Origin: Candidatus Melainabacteria bacterium
GTDB taxonomy: Bacteria; Cyanobacteriota; Vampirovibrionia; Obscuribacterales; Obscuribacteraceae
NCBI GenBank assembly: GCA_016699165.1
Contig: CP064963.1
Span: 2,665,880-2,729,879 of the forward strand
Direction: 5' to 3'
DNA: 64,000 bases
Both the position numbers and the translations under genes were made by a program. How positions within the stretch are numbered: position 1 is the stretch's first letter; each line of letters opens with the position of its first letter. Positions 35,823-48,381 of the stretch are shown here, piece by piece. The notes below the pieces were generated by a model. That model saw only the letters and a program-made list of their open reading frames with translations. It made no database searches and was not told the origin of the DNA.

Positions 35823-36080
35823 TTACGCGGGCTGCGCGAACTCCCCTCTCTCGAACCAGTCGGCGAGTGCCTGGAGGCACGCATCCACATCCTCGCCTTC
35901 CGCGACAATTCGGCCCGTTGTTATCGCTTGCCACTTGGTGGCAGGCGGCTCCTGAACGCTTTGTTCGGGGGCCACCAGGGCGACAACGATGGACGTCTTT
36001 GTTACGGGGTCGAATCCGTGAAGGCACCGCAAGCGGTGCACGCCTTGAGAGAAGTTGATTCGATCCATAACCTTGGTCAT
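35823..36080 (-). CDS. Small hypothetical protein (85 aa) on a G+C-rich islet
   Basis: Canonical AAGGAG Shine-Dalgarno sequence 7 nt before the ATG. Perfect 10-bp hairpin GGAGTCGACG-CCGAG-CGTCGACTCC (35781-35805) just downstream. Flanks are A+T-rich. Confidence 0.6.
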   Translation of the reverse strand: MTKVMDRINFSQGVHRLRCLHGFDPVTKTSIVVALVAPEQSVQEPPATKWQAITTGRIVAEGEDVDACLQALADWFERGEFAQPA

Positions 36081-36738
36081 GGGTTAGCTCCTTTGGTAAA
36101 GATGGGACGACCCCATCCCGAGAGGCTCAGCCTAATTGACACCAAGAGATACAACCTCGCGCCGTGCGAAATGATATTTTCTATGAGGCGCTATTTAACT
36201 GGATTTTGGTTTGAATGGTTTTGGTGTCGATAAGTTGAAAATGAATAACTAAGACTTTCATGAAACAGGCTTAATAGTCAAGATGTGATTGATTCCTTGA
36301 GGCTTTAAGCCTGGTTTCAAAAATAAAAAACTCAAATAAAACTTAGCGCAGTTAGCGATAGAAAAAGTTGCGCTATGTACGCTAAGGGAGATGATTGGTA
36401 ATAGTGTTCAAGAGAATTTGCGAATTCGGTTTTATCCGTTTTAATAATGTGTTCTAAAAATACCAAGTCCATAAGTACTAGCCACAAGCGCTTTGAAGGA
36501 CTTATCGAAACGTGTATTTAATAAAACACCCCGATTAGCTTTCATGATGGATGTATGAACTAAGTCAGGATTAACTTCTAAAATAGGTGAAAACAGCGAT
36601 AAGGTTCGCTTATTCACCCCAGCACGTCTTTTGTTTCTTGTAGGTTTTTCCCCTAGTCAAATTCGAAGTTTTGAAATCACTCTCTGGCTCTTAGAGCCAC
36701 TGAACTGAGCCTAGGACAAAAAAGAAAAGGACCATCAA

Positions 36739-37287
36739 GTGAAGAACGCTACCAACATTACGCTTGGCGTATTCGCCTCTGCGGTGATCGGTGTTCTCTA
36801 TGCCATCATCGTCAATACCATATTCGACCGCTACATGATCGGCTATGACTTCGGCAGTTCGCTTATCGCTGGAGCCATGTTCGGTTCCTTCATCGGCTTG
36901 CCGGTCAGCATGAACTTCCTCACTTCTCATGGTTGGCTGGGTACTGCTGCATCTGCAATGGTCATGCTGCTCGTGTCGTCCACCCTCAGCCCTGTTGCAG
37001 TCTCGACTCTCGTCGCGCCTGTTGTCGTCTACGCGGCATTCACCCAGTTGCTCTTGTACTTCAGCAACACCGACTATTTCTCGAAATTCGAGATGTCGGT
37101 TTTTCCCACTCTCGCTCTGGGATTCCTCATCGGCGCGGGTCTGTATCTGCTGAACACCTACATCGGCTTCAACGCTGGCTTCAAGTGGACGGGATTCTTC
37201 ATCATCTCGACACTTGGCGCTTTGTGCGGATTGGCGACAACTTTCACGCTCGTCATTCGCACCATGGATTTTCGCATCCCCTCGTGA
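36739..37287 (+). CDS. Multi-pass membrane protein (182 aa), function unknown
   Basis: GTG start and 5-6 hydrophobic helices. The antisense ORF 36691-37446 is rejected. Confidence 0.65.
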   Translation: MKNATNITLGVFASAVIGVLYAIIVNTIFDRYMIGYDFGSSLIAGAMFGSFIGLPVSMNFLTSHGWLGTAASAMVMLLVSSTLSPVAVSTLVAPVVVYAAFTQLLLYFSNTDYFSKFEMSVFPTLALGFLIGAGLYLLNTYIGFNAGFKWTGFFIISTLGALCGLATTFTLVIRTMDFRIPS

Positions 37288-37393
37288 AGCCTGACTGAAT
37301 GCAGACCTAAACAGCGGGTCTAGCCGGTCTGCTTCCAAACTGATCCCGACAATATCTAGAACCAACCGCAAATTCCAAACGGAAAGAAAAAAC

Positions 37394-37795
37394 ATGACCA
37401 CCCCGACACTCCCTCTTCCGCAGTACGTCGAAAATGTTCTGACCATCGCAATTCGCAGCGTTCTTCAGGGTCAGGCCTCTGGCGTTCGAATTCGATTCAT
37501 TGCCGACGACGTCAGGCAACAGCCGCTGTGGCTGGAATTCGATGCGCTACCTGTGGAAAATAGTGATGCAAGCAACACCGCGCTCGATTATTGGCTGCGG
37601 TCCATTGACCCCGATTCGCTCTTCGGGCAGAACCATAGCTTCAGCCAACAGGACGGCGATGCGTTCAAGCTCATCGAGCCGGCAAAGGCGTATTTGCTCT
37701 TGCAACTCGCGAACAAGTCCTCCATTCAGGTCACGTACAAGTTCAGCTGGTCTGACGCAAGCCCCGACTCCGAGGTGGAGTCTCGTTGGCCGTAG
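37394..37795 (+). CDS. Hypothetical soluble protein (133 aa)
   Basis: ATG start in the same orientation and composition as its neighbours. No family recognised. Confidence 0.55.
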   Translation: MTTPTLPLPQYVENVLTIAIRSVLQGQASGVRIRFIADDVRQQPLWLEFDALPVENSDASNTALDYWLRSIDPDSLFGQNHSFSQQDGDAFKLIEPAKAYLLLQLANKSSIQVTYKFSWSDASPDSEVESRWP

Positions 37796-37950
37796 GGTCG
37801 AACAATTAAAGTCTCTTTTGATCTCTATCTCTTCCAAACCGAAACAAGCACCTCAAGCGCCACTACCTGAGACGAAGCTTCTCATCTTACAGACACCAGT
37901 TGTCTGATGATTATTTTGGCGCTTGTCGGAAGAACAAATCGGAGCTGTAA

Positions 37951-38199
37951 ATGTGCAATAAAACTGACTCCAGATCGAATGGAACTGTTCAGGCAGTGAC
38001 AAACGCAGGTTCCTCAGATCACGTGAAGCCGGCTTCAACGCTGTGCTTCGAATGTGACTCACCCCTCACGCGAGGAGGTCAAAAATACGGGCCCATTTGC
38101 CTCACCTGCAATCCCGAGTTCGCCCAGCGCTGCAGCGATGTAGGCTGCGGGCGTCTACTCTGGGATTGCCAGTGCATCAATCCACATTCGTGGGAGTAG
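37951..38199 (+). CDS. Cys-rich small protein (82 aa), double zinc-ribbon-like
   Basis: CFEC-x15-CLTC, then C-x4-C-x6-C-x-C: eight Cys in the C-terminal 50 residues. Confidence 0.55.
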   Translation: MCNKTDSRSNGTVQAVTNAGSSDHVKPASTLCFECDSPLTRGGQKYGPICLTCNPEFAQRCSDVGCGRLLWDCQCINPHSWE

Positions 38200-38303
38200 G
38201 CCGGTAGAGGTGTGGAGAACTGTCTTGTTAATTACAAGGCAAGCGGTTCTCCGCACTATCGAAAACCCAGAAACCAGACAGAGAATACAAAAGGAGACGC
38301 AGC

Positions 38304-38600
38304 ATGAATGATGTCGGAACTGTTCACGGCATATTTACCGTTCTTGGTCTGTTTGCTTTCGTTCTCTGCATTCACCTTGGTCATCGAAAGAAGGTAGACT
38401 GGGAGAAAGATTCGAACAATCGCTGGCTTCATGTCATCGGTAGGTTCAAGTATGTCGCTTTCTTCTTGGCGGTCGCCATTGCAGGCGCGTTCTTCGTCAA
38501 CGGTTTCTATGCTGTCGGCGCTTGGATCGCCTGTGTCGGTGCCTTTCTGGACGCCTTCGTCTTCGACTTCATGCCGCGACCTCGCAATCGCGGCTGGTGA
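38304..38600 (+). CDS. Small three-TM membrane protein (98 aa)
   Basis: AAAGGAGA Shine-Dalgarno sequence upstream. Three hydrophobic helices. Confidence 0.6.
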   Translation: MNDVGTVHGIFTVLGLFAFVLCIHLGHRKKVDWEKDSNNRWLHVIGRFKYVAFFLAVAIAGAFFVNGFYAVGAWIACVGAFLDAFVFDFMPRPRNRGW

Positions 38601-38653
38601 TACCAATTTAGAATCTTCTCTACCCCGTTCAACAGCAAAAGAAAGTTCACTAA

Positions 38654-38914
38654 ATGACAGACAACAACGATCTTCCGGTGATCGACTTAACCGGAAAGGC
38701 CCCAGTGACCGCCATGTCTCTGGCCTCAAACACATCTCCGCCGCACTACACTGGCAGCGTGCTCGTCCAGGTCCGGGCCGGCAGCGCCAAGGAAGCGATG
38801 GAGTTCGGGCGGAAGCTCAAGAACTTCAAGCTCGACGAGTCTTACGGTCCCATCGAAATGGGCGGCGGCACCTGGCTGATCAAGGGCACTGCCTCCGGTG
38901 AAGTCACGGACTGA
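38654..38914 (+). CDS. Hypothetical small protein (86 aa)
   Basis: ATG lies 53 nt after the previous stop. An 11-bp hairpin GAGGTTGGGGA...TCCCCAACCTC lies downstream (38954-38984). Confidence 0.55.
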   Translation: MTDNNDLPVIDLTGKAPVTAMSLASNTSPPHYTGSVLVQVRAGSAKEAMEFGRKLKNFKLDESYGPIEMGGGTWLIKGTASGEVTD

Positions 38915-39090
38915 TCTCCAGGTCTGTGTTTTGATCGTTGAGTAATGCTAAAGGAGGTTGGGGATTTTAACAGTCCCCAACCTCTGCGCATTCTAATTGG
39001 CCTCGCCAAAATTGCAGCTTTCAATTGGTGCCATATTTTTTAAGCAGGATGTTACTAAAACCTATAGTATTTTTTTGGGAATGAAGAGAG

Positions 39091-39150
39091 AGAGAGGAGA
39101 AGGGCTGTTTATAAAACAGCCACAACTCCCCTTTCCCCTTACTTGCCTAG
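39091..39150. repeat. Copy 2 of the 60-nt terminator-like palindromic element
   Basis: 52 of 60 identical to 32313-32372. Core GGCTGTTT-ATA-AAACAGCC. Its last 12 nt overlap the stop and final codons of gene 39139-39498. Confidence 0.6.
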
Positions 39151-39498
39151 CTTGAGACCGAGATTGTATCCCAGTCCGCCGCAGGCACCGACTCCTGCCA
39201 TGATAGCGAGGATACTTGCGACCAGTCCCGATTCACGGACCCACACCTGAGGCGGAAGTCCGACTGAGACAAAGATTGCCGCAAGGACCGTCAGGATGAA
39301 CGCAGGCTTCACGAACGACAGCACCAAATTCGGTGCCGAAAAAGCGACGGTGTACATCGCCACCACGCCGAGAAAAACGCCCATGCCGATGGTCTCGATG
39401 GCCCCGGTAGGAATGTGATAGACGGTGCTGTTGGCGACCAGATAGGCAGCCGCAGTGAACACCACGCAAAGAATACTGCCGAGAATTCGACCGTTCAT
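39139..39498 (-). CDS. Four-TM small membrane protein, tandem paralog A (119 aa)
   Basis: AGGAGACAAAA Shine-Dalgarno sequence before ATG 39498. N-terminal NGRILGSILC and C-terminal GACGGLGYNLG boxes shared with B-E. Its ATG overlaps the TGA of B (ATGA). Confidence 0.75.
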   Translation of the reverse strand: MNGRILGSILCVVFTAAAYLVANSTVYHIPTGAIETIGMGVFLGVVAMYTVAFSAPNLVLSFVKPAFILTVLAAIFVSVGLPPQVWVRESGLVASILAIMAGVGACGGLGYNLGLKLGK

Positions 39499-39863
39499 TT
39501 TTGTCTCCTCTTTGTCAGGTTGAAACCAAGATAGAAACCAAGTCCGCCAAGAGAACCAATCAAAGCCACACAAAGCACGATGCTGAACATCTTTGTCCAA
39601 CTGTCATCGAACGCACCTTGCGGTTCGGTCATACCAAAAGCAATCAACATCAAGACCGCAACTGCAAGCGCAGGCTTTGTGATGGAACCTACAAGCGATG
39701 GTTTTGAGAAAGCCACGCTGTAAGTGGCAATCAGTCCAAGTGCAAAGCCGGCTCCAAGGTTTGACCAGTAGAAGGTCGCGCCCGTGAACCAGCTATGCAC
39801 AAGGAAGAACGCGACGGTTGTTACCGTCGCGCAAAGGATGCCGCCTAAAAGACGACCGTTCAC
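39495..39863 (-). CDS. Four-TM small membrane protein, tandem paralog B (122 aa)
   Basis: Clear paralog of A (VNGRLLGGILC..., GSLGGLGFYLG). The only plausible start is GTG 39863, 5 nt after the stop of C. The His/Arg-rich upstream part of track ORF 39495-40259 overlaps C out of frame and is rejected. Confidence 0.65.
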   Translation of the reverse strand: MNGRLLGGILCATVTTVAFFLVHSWFTGATFYWSNLGAGFALGLIATYSVAFSKPSLVGSITKPALAVAVLMLIAFGMTEPQGAFDDSWTKMFSIVLCVALIGSLGGLGFYLGFNLTKRRQK

Positions 39864-39868
39864 CGACT

Positions 39869-40243
39869 TCAGTCGCCGATGAACTTGGCAGCAGCAGGCT
39901 TGGCGGCGAACTTGTAGCTCTGACCGCCGATGGCGCCGGTAGCGACCACCGCGAGCGTGGTGATGATGAAGCGCGAAAGGTCGAGACCGCTCGTGCCGAA
40001 TGCCTGGATCATGACGACCGAGACGACCGTCCACAGCACAGCCATGGTGCCGATGCCGACAGCCAGGGGGGCGCTTCCTTGACGGATGATGGCGATTGCC
40101 GCACCGCAAATGATACCAGCGGCACCACCGACCATGAGAGCGGGAATCGGGCTGATGGTGCCCATTCCCAGAAGACCGCCGACATAGACGGTCAGGATCA
40201 TGGCGACTGCGCAGGCGAGAATTCCCTTGATTTTGCTGGACAT
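39869..40243 (-). CDS. Four-TM small membrane protein, tandem paralog C (124 aa)
   Basis: SKIKGILACAV N-terminus, Gly-zipper-rich helices and C-terminal ATGAIGGQSYKF. Confidence 0.7.
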   Translation of the reverse strand: MSSKIKGILACAVAMILTVYVGGLLGMGTISPIPALMVGGAAGIICGAAIAIIRQGSAPLAVGIGTMAVLWTVVSVVMIQAFGTSGLDLSRFIITTLAVVATGAIGGQSYKFAAKPAAAKFIGD

Positions 40244-40382
40244 TACTTTTCTCCTTCATGTTTTGGAGTTTAGCTTCGTGCGTTTTGAAGAGATGAATGG
40301 CAGTGAGAGAGGAAAAGAAAAGCGCGACTCAAATCTGTCTTAAGCCGCGGTTGTCGTTCCCTTCTCTCCGTCTTGCAAATTC

Positions 40383-40751
40383 TCAGTCCAGATGCGTCGA
40401 GTATCTGAGCTTGCCAGAACCCCAGCCGTAACCCAATCCCGAAATGGCACCATGAATGATGGCAGCGAGAATGGGTGCGAAAATCACGTACGCACCAACC
40501 AGGACGACACCCTGGAAGTAAACAACGTAGATCACTTCTGCCAGCCACAAGAGCATGGCCGTTACGATTCCGGTGCTTACCGGATTTTCATCGAGGACGG
40601 CACACATAATGCCGATCGCCAGTCCGGCGACGCCGCCGCCCAGGGCAGAGCCGAGCACATCGGTCGAACCCGTCATGACAAACTGAATGACGGTAGAGGC
40701 AACAGCAGCGAAGATGACGCAAAGGACGATACCATAGAGTTTCTTCAACAT
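40383..40751 (-). CDS. Four-TM small membrane protein, tandem paralog D (122 aa)
   Basis: GAAGGAGACAAGCT Shine-Dalgarno sequence before ATG 40751. LKKLYGIVLC N-terminus and HGAISGLGYGWG C-terminal box. Confidence 0.75.
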   Translation of the reverse strand: MLKKLYGIVLCVIFAAVASTVIQFVMTGSTDVLGSALGGGVAGLAIGIMCAVLDENPVSTGIVTAMLLWLAEVIYVVYFQGVVLVGAYVIFAPILAAIIHGAISGLGYGWGSGKLRYSTHLD

Positions 40752-40788
40752 AGCTTGTCTCCTTCTGTTTTGGGTGTGTGGTGACAGG

Positions 40789-41139
40789 TTAGACGCGGGC
40801 GCCCAGCTTGTAGCCGAAACCAGAGGCAGCACCGATGGCAGACATCACAGCAGCGATCCACACCAGTTCGAGTGAGATAGCGGGCGCTTGAGCGACGCCG
40901 ATGTAGACGAAGAAGGCTCCCAGCCCAAGGCAGGTGAACATGGTCACCATCACACCCATGAAGATGGGATTGACGAATTTGAACACGGCACAGCCGATGC
41001 CGATGATGAGCCCGCTTACAGCACTGACAGTGACAACAGCGGGGTAGTTGGCGGTGGTGCCCAGAGCGATGAAATTGCAGATCACCCAGGCGGCGGTGCA
41101 GACGGCGGCAGAGGCGAGGATTCCGATGAGCTTGTTCAT
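40789..41139 (-). CDS. Four-TM small membrane protein, tandem paralog E (116 aa)
   Basis: GAAAGGAAT Shine-Dalgarno sequence before ATG 41139. MNKLIGILASAAVC N-terminus and GAASGFGYKLG C-terminal box. Confidence 0.75.
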   Translation of the reverse strand: MNKLIGILASAAVCTAAWVICNFIALGTTANYPAVVTVSAVSGLIIGIGCAVFKFVNPIFMGVMVTMFTCLGLGAFFVYIGVAQAPAISLELVWIAAVMSAIGAASGFGYKLGARV

Positions 41140-41228
41140 GTGTTGATTCCTTTCATTTGGATGTGCGAGGCAGACAACCTCAAGCGTTCGCACTTGCGCT
41201 TTTGGTCTCATTCCAAAATCGAGAAAAA

Positions 41229-41801
41229 CTAGCGCTCGAAAGCGCTCTTGTAGGCGGCTCTTGCAGTGTGGTCGTAAACGGCACTCAAGAGAAAGGCGCA
41301 GACGCAACCGTAGAGGCACTGCTGCAAGTCGGCTGCCGGAGCTAGCTTAAGTGCAGCGAGCACCGGCTGAAAGATAAAGCCTGCGCACATGGCTGAGAAC
41401 ATTTGCGCTGGAGATTCGCTTTTCACCGCAGAGACCATGAAGATGGTCGCTGACATGAACGCCGAATAGAAGGCTGCCTGCAGAAGCCCTTCCTTCCAGG
41501 TCGGCGCAAAGAGCGGCGCTCCAAGCAAGAGGCTGATGGCGGCATAAGCGCCGGCACCAATGGCGGTGAACCAGGCCATTCCCAACCATGGATGGCGTCC
41601 GGCGAAGAGGGCAGGCAGAAGCTCGATCCAGACCGAAGTCCAGAGACCGAAAGCTCCGCCGACCAGTGCCCAGACGAACACAGGCGAGAGATCGAAGGTC
41701 TTGTACAGCATGAGCTGAATCAAGACGTATCCAACCGGAGCAAGGACTGCCGACCAGATGATGCTTACCAGAGTGACTCGCCCAATCATCGAGAGCGTCA
41801 T
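41229..41801 (-). CDS. Multi-pass membrane protein F (190 aa), function unknown
   Basis: About six hydrophobic helices. Same strand and composition as the array and the GH15 gene. Confidence 0.65.
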   Translation of the reverse strand: MTLSMIGRVTLVSIIWSAVLAPVGYVLIQLMLYKTFDLSPVFVWALVGGAFGLWTSVWIELLPALFAGRHPWLGMAWFTAIGAGAYAAISLLLGAPLFAPTWKEGLLQAAFYSAFMSATIFMVSAVKSESPAQMFSAMCAGFIFQPVLAALKLAPAADLQQCLYGCVCAFLLSAVYDHTARAAYKSAFER

Positions 41802-41887
41802 TAGAACACCTCATGAGTTACGTTGTTGATGGATAGCGAACGGGCAGCCGAATTTCTTCGACTTCCCGCTCCCCACTTAGAGTCGAA

Positions 41888-43276
41888 TCAGGCTGCGGCT
41901 CGCGAAGGAGCCGACGCCAGATCTTTGTGCTTCTGCGCGACAAGACTGTTGTGCATCTGCACCACAGATAGTGCCAGCATGGACTGTGCCCATGCAAGCG
42001 GTTCGTTGGCATCGGGCACCCATTCGCCGGTCTTCTGGTCGATGATCCAGGCTTCCGGAATCATCCAGCGCTTGGAGACAGAGGCAAGCGCGCGGTTGAA
42101 GTGCATGACCTGCTTGTCGTAGTACCGGGTTTCGCCGGTGCGCTGGAAAAGCTCGCCATAGATGTACGACATCTGCGGCGAACCGTGACACCACTGCGCT
42201 TCGCTGCCACGCGGGAACTGGCGATTGATGCGCCCATCCCACGTGTCCCACTCGTAGCGAGCGATGCCGATGGGAGCCATCAACACGCGCTCGATGTTCT
42301 CGAGGATAGCGACTGTGTTTGCGTCGTCCAGAATGGGACGACCACAAAACGCCGCCAGCAGAATCGGGTTGATCTGAGCGAGATCGACCTGGCGTTCACC
42401 GCCGCCGTCTGCACGGATGAATTCCCGAGTGCCGAGCTCACGCAGCCGCTCTTCGCACTTCTGCGCCATCTCCAAAACGCCTTTGGCTTCGTGGAGATAG
42501 GTGTTGCCATTGCGCGTAGTGCGCATCGGCCCATGCTTGAGCATGAAGTCGTACTGCTCGCGGAAGCTGATAAGTGCACACGCGATGCTCGACCAGTGCT
42601 CTGCCACGCGATCCTCCCAGGCGCCCAGGTCGAAGTCGGCCCAGACGTTGATTTTCCAGAAGTAGGCGTGGAGCAGAGTGGCGAAATCGGTCAGTTGCGC
42701 CGGGTGCTCACCGTCGGAAAGCTTCATCCTGCCAGTATTCAAAGCATGGAACAGGAGGAAGTTGATGAAGGACAGTGAATCGTTCTGACCGTGTCCCCAC
42801 GGGTCGCCGACTTCGTGGAGCGAAATCGGATTGTAGCGGATATGAGGACGATGGAAGTAGTCCTTGGGATAGCCGCTGTGACCTTCGTGGATAATGTCGA
42901 GGAAGCGATGCTCACCCTTCTGGTGATGGATGACGCTTGCAAGCAAGCCACGCTTCCACTGATCGCCGGGCAAGTTCAGACCGGCATTCAGATCGGGATT
43001 CTCGGCGAACGACAACTCAGCCAAACACTGCATGATGTTGTCGCGATCCCAGTGGAACACGAGCAGCCCGTCGACAGCGTTTTCGAGAGTATGCTCGAGA
43101 TCGAGCACGCTCACTGCCGAATGACCGCCGCTCTTATATCGTCGCACTTTGATTGTGTTGTTGGCGATGAGGGCCTTGCGCACGCAATCGAGGTCGGCGA
43201 GGGAATAAGCCGGACGAATCAGTTTGCCCAGCTCAGCGTTCTGCGCCGTTGAGGCGCTGGAGCTTGTAACACTCAT
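41888..43276 (-). CDS. GH15-like glycoside hydrolase (glucoamylase/glucodextranase-type (alpha/alpha)6 barrel)
   Basis: DPWGHGQNDSLSF, DLGAWEDRV (acid-catalyst WE box) and EPLAWAQSM boxes resemble GH15 signatures. No signal peptide. Confidence 0.7.
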   Translation of the reverse strand: MSVTSSSASTAQNAELGKLIRPAYSLADLDCVRKALIANNTIKVRRYKSGGHSAVSVLDLEHTLENAVDGLLVFHWDRDNIMQCLAELSFAENPDLNAGLNLPGDQWKRGLLASVIHHQKGEHRFLDIIHEGHSGYPKDYFHRPHIRYNPISLHEVGDPWGHGQNDSLSFINFLLFHALNTGRMKLSDGEHPAQLTDFATLLHAYFWKINVWADFDLGAWEDRVAEHWSSIACALISFREQYDFMLKHGPMRTTRNGNTYLHEAKGVLEMAQKCEERLRELGTREFIRADGGGERQVDLAQINPILLAAFCGRPILDDANTVAILENIERVLMAPIGIARYEWDTWDGRINRQFPRGSEAQWCHGSPQMSYIYGELFQRTGETRYYDKQVMHFNRALASVSKRWMIPEAWIIDQKTGEWVPDANEPLAWAQSMLALSVVQMHNSLVAQKHKDLASAPSRAAA

Positions 43277-43389
43277 CTTAGTGTCCTTTCGTGATGGAGT
43301 TAAGTGTTGGGTTGCATTAGCGAATGGTTAGAACGACACGCGAACCAGCTTTTATACTGAATTCACGCGCGGTTACTCCGAGTTGAATC

Positions 43390-44586
43390 TCAACGTTCGC
43401 TTGGCGCGTACTCCACCACCTGCGGTGGCAGGTAATCGAACTGGTGGATTTTGAGCCAGGTGGGGTTGAGCACCACTGGTAGTGCGACCTTATCGGTCGG
43501 CGCGTATACTATCTCGCCAATGACAGTGCCTCGTGGATCGCGATGAACTCGCTTAGCCAGAAAACCATCTTCACGCACGTGGAAGATGTAGTCGGCGCCT
43601 TTGAAACCGTTGCCATCCAGGTATTGAGTAACCTGTTTGAGCTTGCCGGTTTTCTCGTCAAACTCGGCTTTGAAAATGGCTGCACCATTGACATAGGCGG
43701 TCGTGTGGAAAAGCATCGCCGACTTGTCGGCGGTTGCCGGCATCCAGCGCTGCTCAAGGTGAGTCGGGCTTGTTTCTTTGCCCAGAACCGAGTACCAGGG
43801 CGAGGTGCCGATTGCACCGAATACCTGATGTTCTTCTTCCATTTTGCCATCGGCGTCAAAGAGCTTGATGGTGGTGCCATCCGAGTTCTGCTCGACGAAG
43901 ACCCTGCTTTTCACCCCGTCAGGGTAATACCAGAACTCTTTGTACATCCGCTGTTGATGCACATGTCGGGCGGTGACTCGCCGGTCGGGACCGTACTTAA
44001 TCCGCTCGAAACCGTCCTTGATCCGACGGAAAGTCTCAACCAGAGCCATGTCCGCACCAAACTCGTCGGACAGAATTTTGCTCCACTTGGTGGTCTTGCT
44101 CAGGTTGCGATCGAACGATTCGAACTTCTTGAGCAAGCCGTCGGTCCCTGGATGATAAGTCCAGCGATGAGACAGCTCAGGCGTGACCATCGTGGTGCGA
44201 CGCAGAACCTCGCCTTGAAGCGAATATTCGACGTCGCTCAAATAGTCGGCGCCGGTCGCATCGAAAAGAGCATGACGAATCAGAACTCGTGTGCCGTCGA
44301 CTGGCTTCGAGAACGTCTTCGCTTCAGACAAAATGCCGTTTGGACTGAACCAGAAATTCTGGTTTGTACCGTCCGGCAAATCGACAGAAGCGAACTTCTT
44401 GGTGATGCGATCAGCCTGTAGTTCAACTTGACGAAACTCTTCTCCTTTTGGAACGCGAATCTTGTTGTCGAAGTTCAATTGCCATGTCTTGAAAGACTGG
44501 GCAGTTAAACTCGGCTGCGGCACGCAAACGAAAGCTGCAGCTGCGACACACGCGAATAAAGCGATCCACAAGAGCATCCGTTTCAT
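43390..44586 (-). CDS. Secreted repeat protein, paralog family P (member 5 of 5)
   Basis: Signal MKRMLLWIALFACVAAAAFV, FDNKIRVP motif, and DG-containing repeat units (FWYYPDGVKSRVFVEQNSDGTTIKLFDADGK). Confidence 0.8.
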   Translation of the reverse strand: MKRMLLWIALFACVAAAAFVCVPQPSLTAQSFKTWQLNFDNKIRVPKGEEFRQVELQADRITKKFASVDLPDGTNQNFWFSPNGILSEAKTFSKPVDGTRVLIRHALFDATGADYLSDVEYSLQGEVLRRTTMVTPELSHRWTYHPGTDGLLKKFESFDRNLSKTTKWSKILSDEFGADMALVETFRRIKDGFERIKYGPDRRVTARHVHQQRMYKEFWYYPDGVKSRVFVEQNSDGTTIKLFDADGKMEEEHQVFGAIGTSPWYSVLGKETSPTHLEQRWMPATADKSAMLFHTTAYVNGAAIFKAEFDEKTGKLKQVTQYLDGNGFKGADYIFHVREDGFLAKRVHRDPRGTVIGEIVYAPTDKVALPVVLNPTWLKIHQFDYLPPQVVEYAPSER

Positions 44587-44944
44587 GGGATTCTCCCTTA
44601 GTTAGGGGTGGTTGGTGTATGGGTGAGAAGTTGATGGTAAGTGTGCATCATGCGCAAAACGCGCGCGAAATGAAAACTGTGAATTGGGTTCTAATCGGTT
44701 ACTGGAAGAATTTACCGGAAAATATAAATGAGAAAGACAATGTCCCGAACCTACAAAAAGCTCATGACAACCTACAAGCTAAATAAATCTCATAGGAAAC
44801 TCTTTGTTTAAGCCAATCTAAACTATTGTCAAGGTGAAAGCCTATTAATATAGGCGAATCCTACTATAACACTTCGTACAATAACGGCCAAAACAAAGGC
44901 AATGGGAGGAGAGAATAATCTCCAACCCATTCCTTTGCCTCAAA

Positions 44945-46183
44945 TCACGCCCAGGCGCGGAACTTCATCAAGTAGAAGTAGACCAGCGTGAAGAGCAACA
45001 CAGCCACTCCACTAACGCAAAGCGTGATGGTGAGCCCGAATTGACTAGCCATTCCACCTGCCATCAAACCGGCAAGCGGTCCTACGCCAAGCATTGACAC
45101 CGAGAAAGCGCCCATGATGCGACCGCGCGCACCAGGTGAGACTGCTAGCTGAACGGCCGACTGACCGCAATTCAACTGAACCGCACCCGCCGCGCCAGCC
45201 AGATACGCTCCTAAAAGCGAGACAGCAAGCGAGGACGACATAGCCAGAATCAAGACTGCCACTGAAAGTACAAGACAGGCATAGCCGATTCCATAGCGCA
45301 AGCGCTTAGGGTCGACACCGGCCACAAGAAGCGATCCCGAGAGGGCTCCAATACCACCGGCACAAGCCATGAAGCCCATCGTGGTCGCGCTCCCGTGCAG
45401 GAACTTGTCCACTATGACCGGCATGAGCACGTTGTACTGAGTACCAAATATGGTGACAATTGCCATCATACCAAGCGACGAGGCGATACGTGGATCTTTG
45501 AGGAAGGTGAGCAGATTCTGCCCATCTCCACCATTCTTCTTGCGCTCGATTATTGCCTGCGGGTCACTTTCGCTGCGTGTGCGAATCATGTGCAGAGTAA
45601 TAAGCGGAGCCAGAAAACTGACTGCGTTCAAAGCAAAACACACTCCTTCACCCCACAGGACAATCACTAATCCAGCCAAGGCGGGGCCTAGCATTCGGCA
45701 GGTGTTCCAAATGGCGGAAGAGAGCGCAAGGGCGTTTGTGAGACGCTCGGGTTCGACCAGATCTGGTGCAAACGACTGTCTTGCAGGAAACGAAACGGCA
45801 GTGATGGTGCCGCCAATGAAAGCTAGCACGAGCAAGCTCGTCATATCGATGTTACCGGTGAGAGTCATCACCGCAAGCACGCCTGACTGGAACATAGCCA
45901 GAGCCTGACAGGCGATAAGAATCTTGCGCCGGTTGAATCTATCCGCCAGAATTCCTCCAGGGTAGCTGAAGAGCAGCATGGGGAGCGTGTTGGCGAATGT
46001 CGCCATTCCCAAGGCCGCTGGCGAGTCTGTGAGCTTGTACACAAGCCACGGAAGAGCAATCATCTGCATCCATGTGCCGATGATCGAGATAACTTGGCCG
46101 ATGGCATAAACACGGAAATTCCGGTTATCCATCGACTGGAAAGTATTCTTCAGCCACTGATGGGCTTTTTGATTCCAGGTCAT
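44945..46183 (-). CDS. MFS transporter (EntS/MFS_3 'transmembrane secretion effector' type)
   Basis: RNFRVYAIGQVISIIGTWMQMIALPWLV...GGILADRFNRRKILI and about 12 TM. ATG 46183 preferred over the track start at 46270. Confidence 0.85.
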   Translation of the reverse strand: MTWNQKAHQWLKNTFQSMDNRNFRVYAIGQVISIIGTWMQMIALPWLVYKLTDSPAALGMATFANTLPMLLFSYPGGILADRFNRRKILIACQALAMFQSGVLAVMTLTGNIDMTSLLVLAFIGGTITAVSFPARQSFAPDLVEPERLTNALALSSAIWNTCRMLGPALAGLVIVLWGEGVCFALNAVSFLAPLITLHMIRTRSESDPQAIIERKKNGGDGQNLLTFLKDPRIASSLGMMAIVTIFGTQYNVLMPVIVDKFLHGSATTMGFMACAGGIGALSGSLLVAGVDPKRLRYGIGYACLVLSVAVLILAMSSSLAVSLLGAYLAGAAGAVQLNCGQSAVQLAVSPGARGRIMGAFSVSMLGVGPLAGLMAGGMASQFGLTITLCVSGVAVLLFTLVYFYLMKFRAWA

Positions 46184-46306
46184 GATTTCGCCTCTTGCAA
46201 AAGAGTGAGTTTGGTGTGATTTAGAAAGTGCGAAAAACGGCATCAGGGCTGGATGCCCCGATGCCGCCATTACTTCAGCTAGCGATTGCTAACGCGCTTT
46301 CGTTGC

Positions 46307-46666
46307 TCAGTTCGAGCTTGAGCGGTTGAGAGTGTTGTGCAGAACGGCGTTGCCGATCCAGAAGAGGATGCCGGCAAGAAACGCCGCGCCGAACGAAGAA
46401 ACGCTCAGATACTGCGGGAAAAGCCAGCCCATCGCTTGGATGCTGAGCGCAGGGAAAAGCAGATAAGCGAAGATGCCCAGTCCCAGAGTGCCGATGGTGA
46501 AGATCGCCAGACCCAGGTTGACGAGGTATACGACGAGTCCGAAGAGGAGACCGGCGACCACACCTTCTGGCCAGAACGAGCCGTGGAAGGTGATGCCGCT
46601 GACGACTGGGAGAAGGAAGACGAAGAGGAACGCGTTTACGAGAACGCGCATGATGAGGCTTTGCAT
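46307..46666 (-). CDS. DUF360 / phage-holin-4_2-family four-TM membrane protein
   Basis: 119 aa. Layout LVNAFLFVFLLPVVSGITFHGSFWPEGVVAGLLFGLVVYLVN...LFWIGNAVL is typical of DUF360. Confidence 0.65.
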   Translation of the reverse strand: MQSLIMRVLVNAFLFVFLLPVVSGITFHGSFWPEGVVAGLLFGLVVYLVNLGLAIFTIGTLGLGIFAYLLFPALSIQAMGWLFPQYLSVSSFGAAFLAGILFWIGNAVLHNTLNRSSSN

Positions 46667-47243
46667 GTTAATGCATTCCTTGTGTTTGGTTGATTTGATT
46701 TGAAGTTAGAAGCTGTGCAAAGAGATTAGAAACACCAAAAGAGTTGGCGAGAAAAGAAAAGACTCTGAGACTTTCAAATATTTGACCCACTTGATTCAAG
46801 AGTGTTGAAGAAGTGAGAGCGGGTAGAAGAGTGTATTAGTAATATTATTACTAGATACTCATGATTTAAGCACCTAGCGCAGCTGCATGAGCCACTTTTG
46901 AGACAGCAAGATTAGAGTCGCTTAAGAATCAAAAAGATGCGTCTAAATCACCCTTTAAGTACCCCACAAAGCCAATTTCTGGTATCATATATAGTGTCAT
47001 TGATTACAATTCAGACTTTAAAGCACTATAAAATGTGAACTCATGTTTATATAAGCGCAGTTTTATTAGGGGACTCAAAAGCTTTTCCATAGGGTGAAGT
47101 TATCACTTGTTTTACTTTCTTTTAGCCTCTACCTGAACCCAACCAACCCTAAATTCTCTATCTCTTGCAGTTTTTTTTCGCAGTCACAACGCTGCGTAGA
47201 GCTGCACCCTCATCATCAACCTCCAAACGAAATGGAGTAATGC

Positions 47244-47720
47244 ATGACTGGTAACAATGGGACTGGAACCAAAGGTCGAGATCGTTCTCACTTGAGAGTT
47301 GTGCCTGCAGCAGGTCTTCCGGCACCGGAAACCACTTTGCCGCAGACCAACACTGGCTACTCTGCATGGGATCCCAATCGTACTCCTCCGTCGTCAAAGC
47401 TGGTCGAAATCGTTCGCGAACTGATCGCAAACGGTATCGTGCGAGTCAACACCGGCAAATCTCGCGAGGAGCGCTTCAAGTTCACCTGCTCCAAAACAGG
47501 CGAATTCGGCTGGATCATCGTCACTCGCTTCGATGCAAATCACATCATGGTGAGATCCAACGATGGACAGATGGACATCGGCAAACCGCCAAGCTTTCAT
47601 CGTACTGGCAAACGCGAACAGGCGCATGGCTTCATCATCGACGTCATGGCGCATCTTTGCCAGTTCATCGGCAACTACCAGCAAATCAAAATCTCGCACG
47701 AGCTCGACTTGGACACGTAG
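47244..47720 (+). CDS. Hypothetical protein (158 aa)
   Basis: GGAG Shine-Dalgarno sequence before the ATG. First gene of a three-gene + strand operon. Confidence 0.6.
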   Translation: MTGNNGTGTKGRDRSHLRVVPAAGLPAPETTLPQTNTGYSAWDPNRTPPSSKLVEIVRELIANGIVRVNTGKSREERFKFTCSKTGEFGWIIVTRFDANHIMVRSNDGQMDIGKPPSFHRTGKREQAHGFIIDVMAHLCQFIGNYQQIKISHELDLDT

Positions 47721-47763
47721 CGGGATTCGCTCTCAATCGTCAACTGCAACATCGGAAAAAGAT

Positions 47764-48381
47764 ATGAGCAAAATCAGTTACTGGCATTGCATGCCGGTGA
47801 ATCTCATTTCCGGTCCGGTTCTCGTTCCCGACCCCAAGTATTCCGACACCGACTTTCTGCCGGGGTACAAGTGGCTCGAGAATCACATCGGATATTTTCC
47901 GCTCTTCATGGCAGCGGGAAACGAAGACCAGGCGCCGTATAACGCTGGGTACAACAATCAGTGGCGCGTGGTTTTATCCTCTCGTTACTGCAAAGAGAAG
48001 AAGCGTGTTGTCGCAATTTCTCGTCGAGCGAAAGGAGATGTTCTCAACTTCGCCATGTTCCGCTTTGACAAACTGCCTGAAGTTTGCTGTTTTCTCGACA
48101 GCTCCTGGTGGTCGGTCGGAGTTTTGACTCCTCATCTCAACCACGAAGTACCCAGAGAAAGCGAAGTGCGTTCTGTGCTGAAGCGCTCCTGGAGCCATGC
48201 TCGTTGGTTGCGTGAAATCCGCAACGACAAAATCTCAGCCGAACTTGTCGTACCCAAACTCGACCTGCGTGATGCAGCTGAAGTCTGGGTGCGCAACAAG
48301 AAGGCAAAAGCACATTTGGAAAAGCTCGGCTTCAAAAATGTGCAGGTGCGTCGCATTCCTGTCGAAGCGCCCTGGTACTAA
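47764..48381 (+). CDS. Hypothetical protein (205 aa)
   Basis: ATG 47764 (MSKISYWHC...). The longer track ORF from 47563 overlaps the preceding gene. Confidence 0.6.
   Translation: MSKISYWHCMPVNLISGPVLVPDPKYSDTDFLPGYKWLENHIGYFPLFMAAGNEDQAPYNAGYNNQWRVVLSSRYCKEKKRVVAISRRAKGDVLNFAMFRFDKLPEVCCFLDSSWWSVGVLTPHLNHEVPRESEVRSVLKRSWSHARWLREIRNDKISAELVVPKLDLRDAAEVWVRNKKAKAHLEKLGFKNVQVRRIPVEAPWY

Follow-up and report, generated by a model that had tools for sequence, protein, structure and literature searches.

The window analysed here is a stretch of 64,000 nucleotides from Candidatus Melainabacteria bacterium (contig CP064963.1, positions 2,665,880 to 2,729,879 of the forward strand), and it contains a tandem array of five minus-strand genes, named A to E, that encode small four-helix membrane proteins. 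The five proteins are true paralogues, and together with a larger membrane protein encoded directly upstream, F, they would constitute one lineage-specific, operon-like unit of Obscuribacterales. The comparative data favour subunits of a hetero-oligomer over immunity proteins. With a probability of roughly 0.45, hence tentatively, we propose that F and the four-helix paralogues build one hetero-oligomeric complex that lies wholly within the membrane and whose expression is balanced by operon order and translational coupling.

The genes of the unit are given below, with lengths in amino acids (aa) and selection as the ratio of nonsynonymous to synonymous divergence (dN/dS).

41229..41801, minus strand: gene F (locus tag IPG59_12595), a 190-aa polytopic membrane protein with about six helices and no homology to A-E
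40789..41139, minus strand: gene E, 116 aa, E-type; Shine-Dalgarno sequence GAAAGGA, ATG start; dN/dS 0.11-0.42
40383..40751, minus strand: gene D (IPG59_12585), 122 aa, D-type, with E as nearest relative; Shine-Dalgarno sequence AAGGAG; two allele classes among strains
39869..40243, minus strand: gene C, 124 aa, C-type, the type found in all arrays; Shine-Dalgarno sequence GAAGGAG
39495..39863, minus strand: gene B, 122 aa, A/B-type; GTG start without Shine-Dalgarno sequence
39139..39498, minus strand: gene A (IPG59_12570), 119 aa, A/B-type; Shine-Dalgarno sequence GAGGAG inside B

All five array genes had been placed at these coordinates by an initial annotation made from the sequence, and the list of open reading frames contains each of them. 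Their common descent is visible in direct comparison. BLASTP aligns A with B (39% identity) and D with E (31%) over the full length, the remaining pairs being weak yet colinear, and Smith-Waterman z-scores reach at least 4 in eight of the ten pairs when whole sequences are shuffled. When shuffling is confined to blocks of 10 residues, which preserves the hydropathy profile, seven of those eight pairs keep z ≥ 4 and A-E drops to 3.2; the control values, from two small membrane proteins of the window that are unrelated, are z ≤ 3.2. Alignment of ortholog-group profiles with hhalign connects five of the ten pairs (probabilities of 99% for A-B, 97% for D-E, 96% for C-E, 95% for C-D and 85% for A-E), with B linked to C, D and E solely via A; A-C and B-E are not significant as pairs and are connected only transitively. 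The family profile scored below 1% against F, against a 182-aa membrane protein of the window and against its PF04020 neighbour. The similarity thus goes beyond mere transmembrane composition, as the block-shuffle z-scores, the profile-profile scores and the low unrelated controls indicate. The N-terminal and C-terminal boxes that the initial annotation had described as shared are real, the C-terminal box following the pattern G-[AS]-x-x-G-x-G-Y-[KN]-[LF].

Across 50 family members the conserved features are a basic N-terminus, a G-x3-G(-x3-G) motif in helix 2, a proline opening helix 3 and, where helix 4 ends, the motif G-A-x-x-G-x-G-Y-[KR]. Of the glycines, numbered as in D, G101 never varies, and conservation is 90% or higher for G43 and G105. 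Acidic or basic residues reach 50% conservation nowhere in the family alignment. The AlphaFold2 model of D, built from a 30-sequence alignment, is a four-helix bundle of high confidence (predicted local distance difference test, pLDDT, 90.8; predicted template modelling score, pTM, 0.82), with helices at 2-27, 32-53, 57-79 and 87-112 joined by very short loops. This model, together with the charge pattern in all five proteins, bears out the common four-helix topology claimed earlier. Indeed, mapped via the alignment, Lys and Arg number 3-6 on the side of the N-terminus, loop 2 and the C-terminus in all five proteins and 0-1 on the opposite side, and because of this bias A-E are predicted to lie N-in/C-in and parallel to each other. 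The loops comprise 2-10 residues, and there are no soluble domains. Foldseek with the D model returned no significant match in the PDB or among viral models; the best of each, Tim22 (E 0.89, template modelling (TM) score 0.35) and an unnamed 120-aa viral protein (E 0.043, TM 0.53), were rejected as non-specific helical-bundle matches.

Seven related array loci were recovered (L001, L010, L013, L018, L021, L022 and L023), with 3-7 copies each, and their gene arrangements compare with that of the window as follows.

Window: PF04020 protein, MFS, 398-aa secreted repeat protein, GH15-like, F, E, D, C, B, A
L022: the arrangement of the window plus an F paralogue (F'-F)
L021: GH15-like, F, E2, C2, E, D, C, B, A; seven members
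L001 and L010: 398-aa gene, G (P0050, C-type), F, E, D, C, B, A; six members, without the GH15-like gene
L018, from a more distant species: two 398-aa homologues around a cytidine-deaminase-like gene, GH15-like (79% identical), F', F (56%), E', C', D'
L023: F', F, E', C', A'
L013: E', C', A'

The order of types is kept throughout, an E-type gene being followed by a C-type gene and then by an A- or D-type gene. Array members fall into deep, type-specific clades that run across species rather than into clusters per genome, both in a neighbour-joining tree and in BLAST best-hit assignments, and on the strength of these two analyses we assign the genes of the window to the types E/D, C and A/B, with E/D and A/B duplicated. 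Five, the count of the initial annotation, is not a set number; copy number ranges from 3 to 7, and the five copies derive from about three ancient types. The extra copies of L021 are an adjacent E-type and C-type pair (E2-C2).

The bounds of 39139-41139 first drawn around the unit were likewise too small, since F precedes the array directly in 5/5 related loci whose upstream flank was recovered (L001/L010, L021, L022, L018 and L023) and so belongs to it. F is as narrowly distributed as the arrays: among 5.8 billion proteins it forms 12 clusters, it has no Pfam domain, and it shares with them a narrow lineage and several contigs. A PDB sequence search with F found no match, and its AlphaFold2 model is of low confidence (pLDDT 64), with about six helices. 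The window has one F; tandem diverged paralogues of F, about 31-33% identical, occur in L018 (6758-7908), L022 (5387-6519) and L023 (139-1280), and the called reading frames of F and F' overlap by 4 nt in L018 and L023. Single-copy members of the four-helix family are found without F in unrelated contexts of other Obscuribacterales (L007, L012, L015 and L016). At L007 9468-9821, one of them, P0060, adjoins a 117-aa membrane protein of the MamF/MmsF family (PF09685) and a NupC-type nucleoside transporter. At L013 1575-2264, the array borders directly on a gene of the other strand that encodes a CPBP/Rce1-like intramembrane protease.

The DNA also carries the marks of coordinated translation. 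The C stop codon, TGA, is followed after 5 nt by the GTG of B, and the ATG of A lies over the stop of B as an ATGA overlap; both junctions are as described in the initial annotation, and the gap and the overlap support its proposal of tight C-B-A coupling. AGGAG-like Shine-Dalgarno sequences stand upstream of E, D, C and A, and none precedes B. Despite this and its GTG start, B is a genuine gene, with a dN/dS of 0.17-0.32 and a start position that is kept, at the sequence level, in relatives: its ortholog in L021 has ATG at the identical stop+5 position, and in L023, which represents another species, a GTG placed 9 nt past the C-type stop opens the A-type gene. Four hairpins accompany the genes.

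39858..39884, minus strand: stem-loop of 10 pairs at the C/B junction, with the C stop in the loop and the B GTG in the 3' arm
40323..40349, minus strand: terminator-like hairpin with a T-rich tail, a pattern match only, in the 139-nt spacer between D and C
39103..39121, minus strand: perfect 8-bp hairpin, GGCTGTTT-TAT-AAACAGCC, read from the sequence 18 nt past the A stop
41841..41868, minus strand: 28-nt hairpin, CGGGAAGTCGAA-GAAA-TTCGGCTGCCCG, between the GH15-like gene and F

The 60-nt segment around the C/B stem-loop has a predicted fold of -24.1 kcal/mol, and its architecture is what one would expect if translation of B depended on ribosomes finishing C, a function that we infer. The hairpin in the D-C spacer may divide the array into F-E-D and C-B-A or attenuate it between them, and the one behind A probably marks the 3' end of the transcript. 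The 28-nt element recurs behind the 398-aa gene in L001 and L010. An Rfam scan of 36000-48000 gave no match and no riboswitch.

Each copy is selectively maintained. Against orthologs in L001, L010, L021 and L022, A-E and F show dN/dS of 0.1-0.6, and against the more distant L018, which has no ortholog of A or B, the values for F, E, D and C are 0.23-0.79; all five array genes, the GTG-started B included, are thus under purifying selection. At the same time the locus varies strongly between close strains. Compared with L001, whose flanks are 99% identical in DNA, only F is diverged, with a synonymous divergence (dS) of 0.31 vs 0-0.02 for the array genes, while in L010 only D is a different allele (78% aa identity, dS 0.475; neighbours dS 0.01-0.13). 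Compared with L022, dS is 0.73-1.31 over the 398-aa gene, F, E and D, and 0.09-0.34 in the flanks. Furthermore, window positions 41831-43379, which hold the GH15-like gene, are replaced in L001 (7167-7668) and L010 (9903-10404) by 502 bp with a sixth family member, P0050 (123 aa); because the two versions share a 23-nt match within the 28-nt hairpin (41868-41841), the replacement is in truth two indels, one to each side of the hairpin. Array proteins also diverge faster than their neighbours, with 32-42% identity to those of L018 vs 79% for the GH15-like gene. Allele swaps, cassette replacement and dS peaks together make the locus a hot spot of recombination and diversity, and chimeric metagenome assembly could add to the pattern.

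The family is rare. A profile search of all 1.84 billion protein cluster representatives (threshold E ≤ 0.001) returned 51 proteins (clusters), and a metagenome scan added two extra loci; scans of GTDB representative genomes and of viral contigs did not find the family. Fifty of the 51 members have 99-133 aa and match over essentially their full length, except for two truncated products. The 51st, P0077 (L020 8001-8600), has 199 aa, corresponding to about 1.5 fused copies of the four-helix unit, and lies amid a long series of unannotated small genes that encode 100-207 aa. All members with a source name come from metagenome-assembled genomes labelled Melainabacteria, Obscuribacterales or 'Cyanobacteria bacterium'. 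In Pfam, NCBIfam, PADLOC and PHROG, neither the array family nor F had a match above threshold when A-E, F and the neighbours were scanned, and a PDB sequence search with the family profile had SemiSWEET as its best, non-significant match (E 0.13). The view that no curated family carries this signature thus stands for Pfam, NCBIfam, PADLOC, PHROG, PDB and Foldseek, and literature on DUF3792/TIGR04086/YrzE and on Obscuribacter membrane proteins yielded nothing relevant. As far as these searches reach, the family is unannotated, rare and restricted to Obscuribacterales, that is, to non-photosynthetic cyanobacteria.

One resemblance recurs below threshold. Six of 50 members match TIGR04086 of NCBIfam weakly (best E 0.0013) and four of 50 match its Pfam counterpart DUF3792 (best E 0.0073). 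None of A-E is among them, and none of the 50 members reaches the curated threshold of either family. For P0056, the sole TIGR04086 match with its alignment displayed, residues 5-109 align colinearly with profile positions 4-110 of 115 (E 0.11, 12.7 bits, cut-off 30). As the sole recurring hint, this similarity would be a lead, not membership.

We thus arrive at a model in which F, with about six helices and at times accompanied by its paralogue F', would be the larger component of the complex, and the four-helix paralogues would supply subunits of three or more types that separated in ancient times, E/D, C and A/B. The subunits are proposed to lie parallel in the membrane because all termini are predicted to be cytoplasmic. 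Their packing might rely on two conserved motifs of small residues, G-x3-G-x3-G in helix 2 and G-A-x-x-G-x-G-Y-K where helix 4 reaches the cytoplasm. Balanced production would be ensured by gene order, by coupling from C to B (stop, 5 nt, GTG in a hairpin) and by coupling from B to A (ATGA), to which the hairpins between the sub-units of the operon possibly add. The five copies of the window would represent a three-type core on which the E/D and A/B types were duplicated. The short loops, the lack of soluble domains and the lack of a conserved charged residue make ion-coupled transport less plausible than a role that is structural or channel-like.

What leads us to prefer a complex is that type composition, order and linkage to F are kept over six arrangements whose orthologs share 30-50% identity. 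The same conclusion is suggested by purifying selection on each copy, by the adjacent E2-C2 pair of L021, by the junction from C-type stop to A/B-type start, which stays tight in L023 (9 nt) and L021 (stop+5), and by a distribution of F as narrow as that of the arrays. Toxin, ATPase, defence and phage families were found at none of the array loci examined, which also argues for a complex. Moreover, the single-copy members agree with a common path by which a homo-oligomer turns into a hetero-oligomer. From this body of comparison we infer that the subunits assemble physically, as well as whatever activity the complex may have. Several observations weigh on the other side. The stoichiometry cannot be rigid, given copy numbers of 3-7 and single-copy members without F; replacement of D and F alleles and the exchange of the GH15-like gene for a paralogue amount to a mosaicism that one would sooner expect at conflict loci than in housekeeping complexes; dN/dS rises to 0.4-0.8 in C- and E-type genes; the neighbour-joining tree is without support values and built from short hydrophobic sequences; and physical interaction among F and A-E is proposed from comparative data only.

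Such mosaicism is what one would look for if the array were of immunity type, with each paralogue neutralising, in the membrane, a different membrane-acting toxin of competitors, be it a pore-forming bacteriocin or a contact-dependent or secreted effector, and with F as a further immunity or accessory protein. This would suit proteins that are small and nearly all membrane-embedded, with loops of 2-10 residues; immunity proteins against colicin A/B-type pore-formers are likewise small and nearly all membrane-embedded. It would also suit copy numbers of 3-7, allele swapping and cassette replacement in near-identical strains, a dS peak in the middle of the locus (0.7-1.3 for the 398-aa gene, F, E and D vs 0.09-0.34 in the flanks), the rapid divergence of the array proteins (32-42% identity vs 79% for the GH15-like gene in L018) and the CPBP/Rce1-like protease gene adjoining the L013 array. 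We nevertheless hold it to be unlikely, for three types in constant order behind F across species are not expected of orphan immunity islands, dN/dS stays below 1 throughout, and translational coupling suggests stoichiometric co-production. PADLOC gave no match, and toxin, secretion-system and mobile-element genes were not found beside any array locus examined, although unannotated toxins are possible. Indeed, as the initial annotation had stated for toxin and ATPase genes nearby, none were found at the array loci; toxin, secretion and integrase families are recorded neither in the window nor beside L001, L010, L013, L018, L021, L022, L023 or the single-copy loci, the sole exception being a gene of the TacA1 antitoxin family, some 6 kb away from P0077, an atypical member (L020). 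Of the two functional ideas put forward at the outset, that of hetero-oligomer subunits is therefore the one favoured by conserved types, order and linkage to F, and that of an immunity array is less favoured. A further possibility, which we regard as very unlikely, is that F and the E/C/A(D) subunits form a hetero-oligomeric inner-membrane machine of non-photosynthetic cyanobacteria whose subunits are exchanged between co-existing strains under frequency-dependent selection; such a machine might serve as a membrane entry point or a block for phage DNA or membrane-acting toxins and would be a new modular, allele-shuffled barrier in the membrane.

If one sets interaction aside altogether, the proteins could be independent small membrane proteins, homo-oligomers or monomers with redundant or overlapping roles, either stress- or envelope-associated or a very distant branch of TIGR04086/DUF3792 (YrzE-like), and the tandem would then reflect duplication history only. 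Flexible copy number, single-copy members without F in unrelated contexts of other Obscuribacterales and the weak matches to TIGR04086 (6/50) and DUF3792 (4/50) are in keeping with this, yet those matches lie far under the cut-offs (for instance 12.7 bits vs 30), and neither the conserved type order with its linkage to F nor the long retention of anciently diverged types under purifying selection is expected of redundant copies, so that we consider this explanation improbable. The least probable of the readings considered, with only a slight chance of being right, is an SMR/DMT-like transporter or a flippase for lipid-linked sugars made of paired four-helix subunits, as in EbrAB or ArnE/ArnF, perhaps working with the GH15-like enzyme and the MFS protein. 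Size and helix number equal those of SMR proteins, the genes are adjacent, coupled paralogues, and four species or strains keep a glycoside-hydrolase-like neighbour; Foldseek gave weak matches to Gdx-Clo (TM 0.43, E 4.5) and to viral EamA/SMR proteins (E 0.6-3.7), and NCBIfam EmrE, the best of the SMR hidden Markov models, matched protein A only (E 0.087, 13.3 bits vs a cut-off of 162). However, all these Foldseek and EmrE matches are non-significant, and Pfam SMR matches none of the 50 members. A membrane-embedded Glu in helix 1 is a defining feature of SMR proteins, and helix 1 carries no acidic residue in A-E or in the family consensus. Antiparallel pairs were not seen either, the charge bias predicting one orientation for all paralogues; no riboswitch was detected in 36000-48000, and L001 and L010 have intact arrays without the GH15-like gene.

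Beyond the proposed unit of F and A-E, the nearest gene upstream is the following.

41888..43276, minus strand: GH15-like gene, (alpha/alpha)6-type, 462 aa; Pfam GH15 at E=1.8e-4, just below cut-off

A PDB search by sequence with the GH15-like protein gave a best E of 0.8, which is not significant. Its orthologs are 79-93% identical in L018, L021 and L022, and its association with the array, raised earlier as a point to follow, holds in so far as it is conserved across species; the gene is dispensable, however, as the two near-identical strains L001 and L010 lack it. The 398-aa protein (43390-44586, minus strand) has an N-terminal signal or anchor and weak matches to MORN_2/YwqK-like repeats, and it diverges fast between strains (75% identity and dS of about 1 vs L022). 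In L018 its gene is duplicated, and the copies flank the cytidine-deaminase-like gene. In Bacillus, proteins of the YwqK type act as immunity partners to toxins with deaminase activity, and the 398-aa gene might be a conflict-related neighbour. Further upstream of the array lie an MFS_3 transporter (44945-46270, minus strand) and a 119-aa four-helix protein of PF04020 (Phage_holin_4_2/DUF360; 46307-46666, minus strand), both syntenic in L001, L010, L018 and L022.

From the other side, four small open reading frames converge on the array (36739-37287, 37394-37795, 38304-38600 and 38654-38914, all plus strand), two of which encode membrane proteins (182 aa and 98 aa) and which have no family match. 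They are conserved in L001 and L022 (87-100% identity, dN/dS 0.1-0.8) and form a further lineage-specific block of uncharacterised genes. G+C is 53-57% over the array and the GH15-like gene (38000-44000) vs 44-49% in the stretches to either side, 32-38 kb and 46-48 kb; the rise may stem from Gly/Ala/Val-rich membrane coding or from a different origin. The window contains no tRNA genes.

Altogether, the family is a piece of genomic dark matter: confidently folded, selectively maintained membrane proteins without a detectable relative in curated libraries, from an order, Obscuribacterales, for which metagenome-assembled genomes are the main source of knowledge. The locus is clearly defined, yet nothing so far points to biology of a new kind; what it offers is a family with clear limits, a revised boundary of the unit that takes in F, and a model open to testing. 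Should the proteins form a complex, it would be a lineage-specific membrane machine whose conserved subunit types and coupled translation make experiments tractable. Should the swapping of alleles and cassettes be true and not an assembly artefact, the locus would mark strain-level conflict or adaptation in wastewater communities.

Among known systems, several share outward traits with the array. The GlsB/YeaQ/YmgE proteins (Transgly_assoc) are small and have glycine-rich helices too; they comprise about 80 aa and three helices, and the separation from them made in the initial annotation is upheld by 116-124 aa, four helices and the lack of a PF04226 match at E up to 1 in the 50 members. For Phage_holin_4_2 (PF04020/DUF360) there is no Pfam match, hhalign against the PF04020 protein of the window gives 0.4%, and PHROG has no match; for CrcB/Fluc there is a match in one member only (E 0.63), and Rfam detects no fluoride riboswitch in 36000-48000. 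The TIGR04086/DUF3792 proteins are uncharacterised four-helix proteins of about 120-146 aa, mostly from Firmicutes, similar to the array family in length and helix count but different in taxonomic range; membership would explain nothing, because that family too lacks a known function. Immunity proteins of pore-forming colicins and bacteriocins, inner-membrane proteins of three or four helices, and orphan arrays of them resemble the array proteins in being small, nearly fully membrane-embedded and lineage-specific, and immunity arrays also consist of diverged copies in tandem whose number and alleles vary from strain to strain; the immunity families in Pfam and PADLOC show no sequence similarity to the array proteins, and a conserved type order and linkage to F are unexpected for such arrays. 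Paired SMR proteins and the ArnE/ArnF heterodimers, finally, have the same four helices in 105-125 aa, and they are paralogous subunits from adjacent, often overlapping genes that act as hetero-oligomers. The array has no significant match to them in sequence or fold, and it departs from their plan by combining at least three subunit types with a six-helix partner instead of forming a pair.

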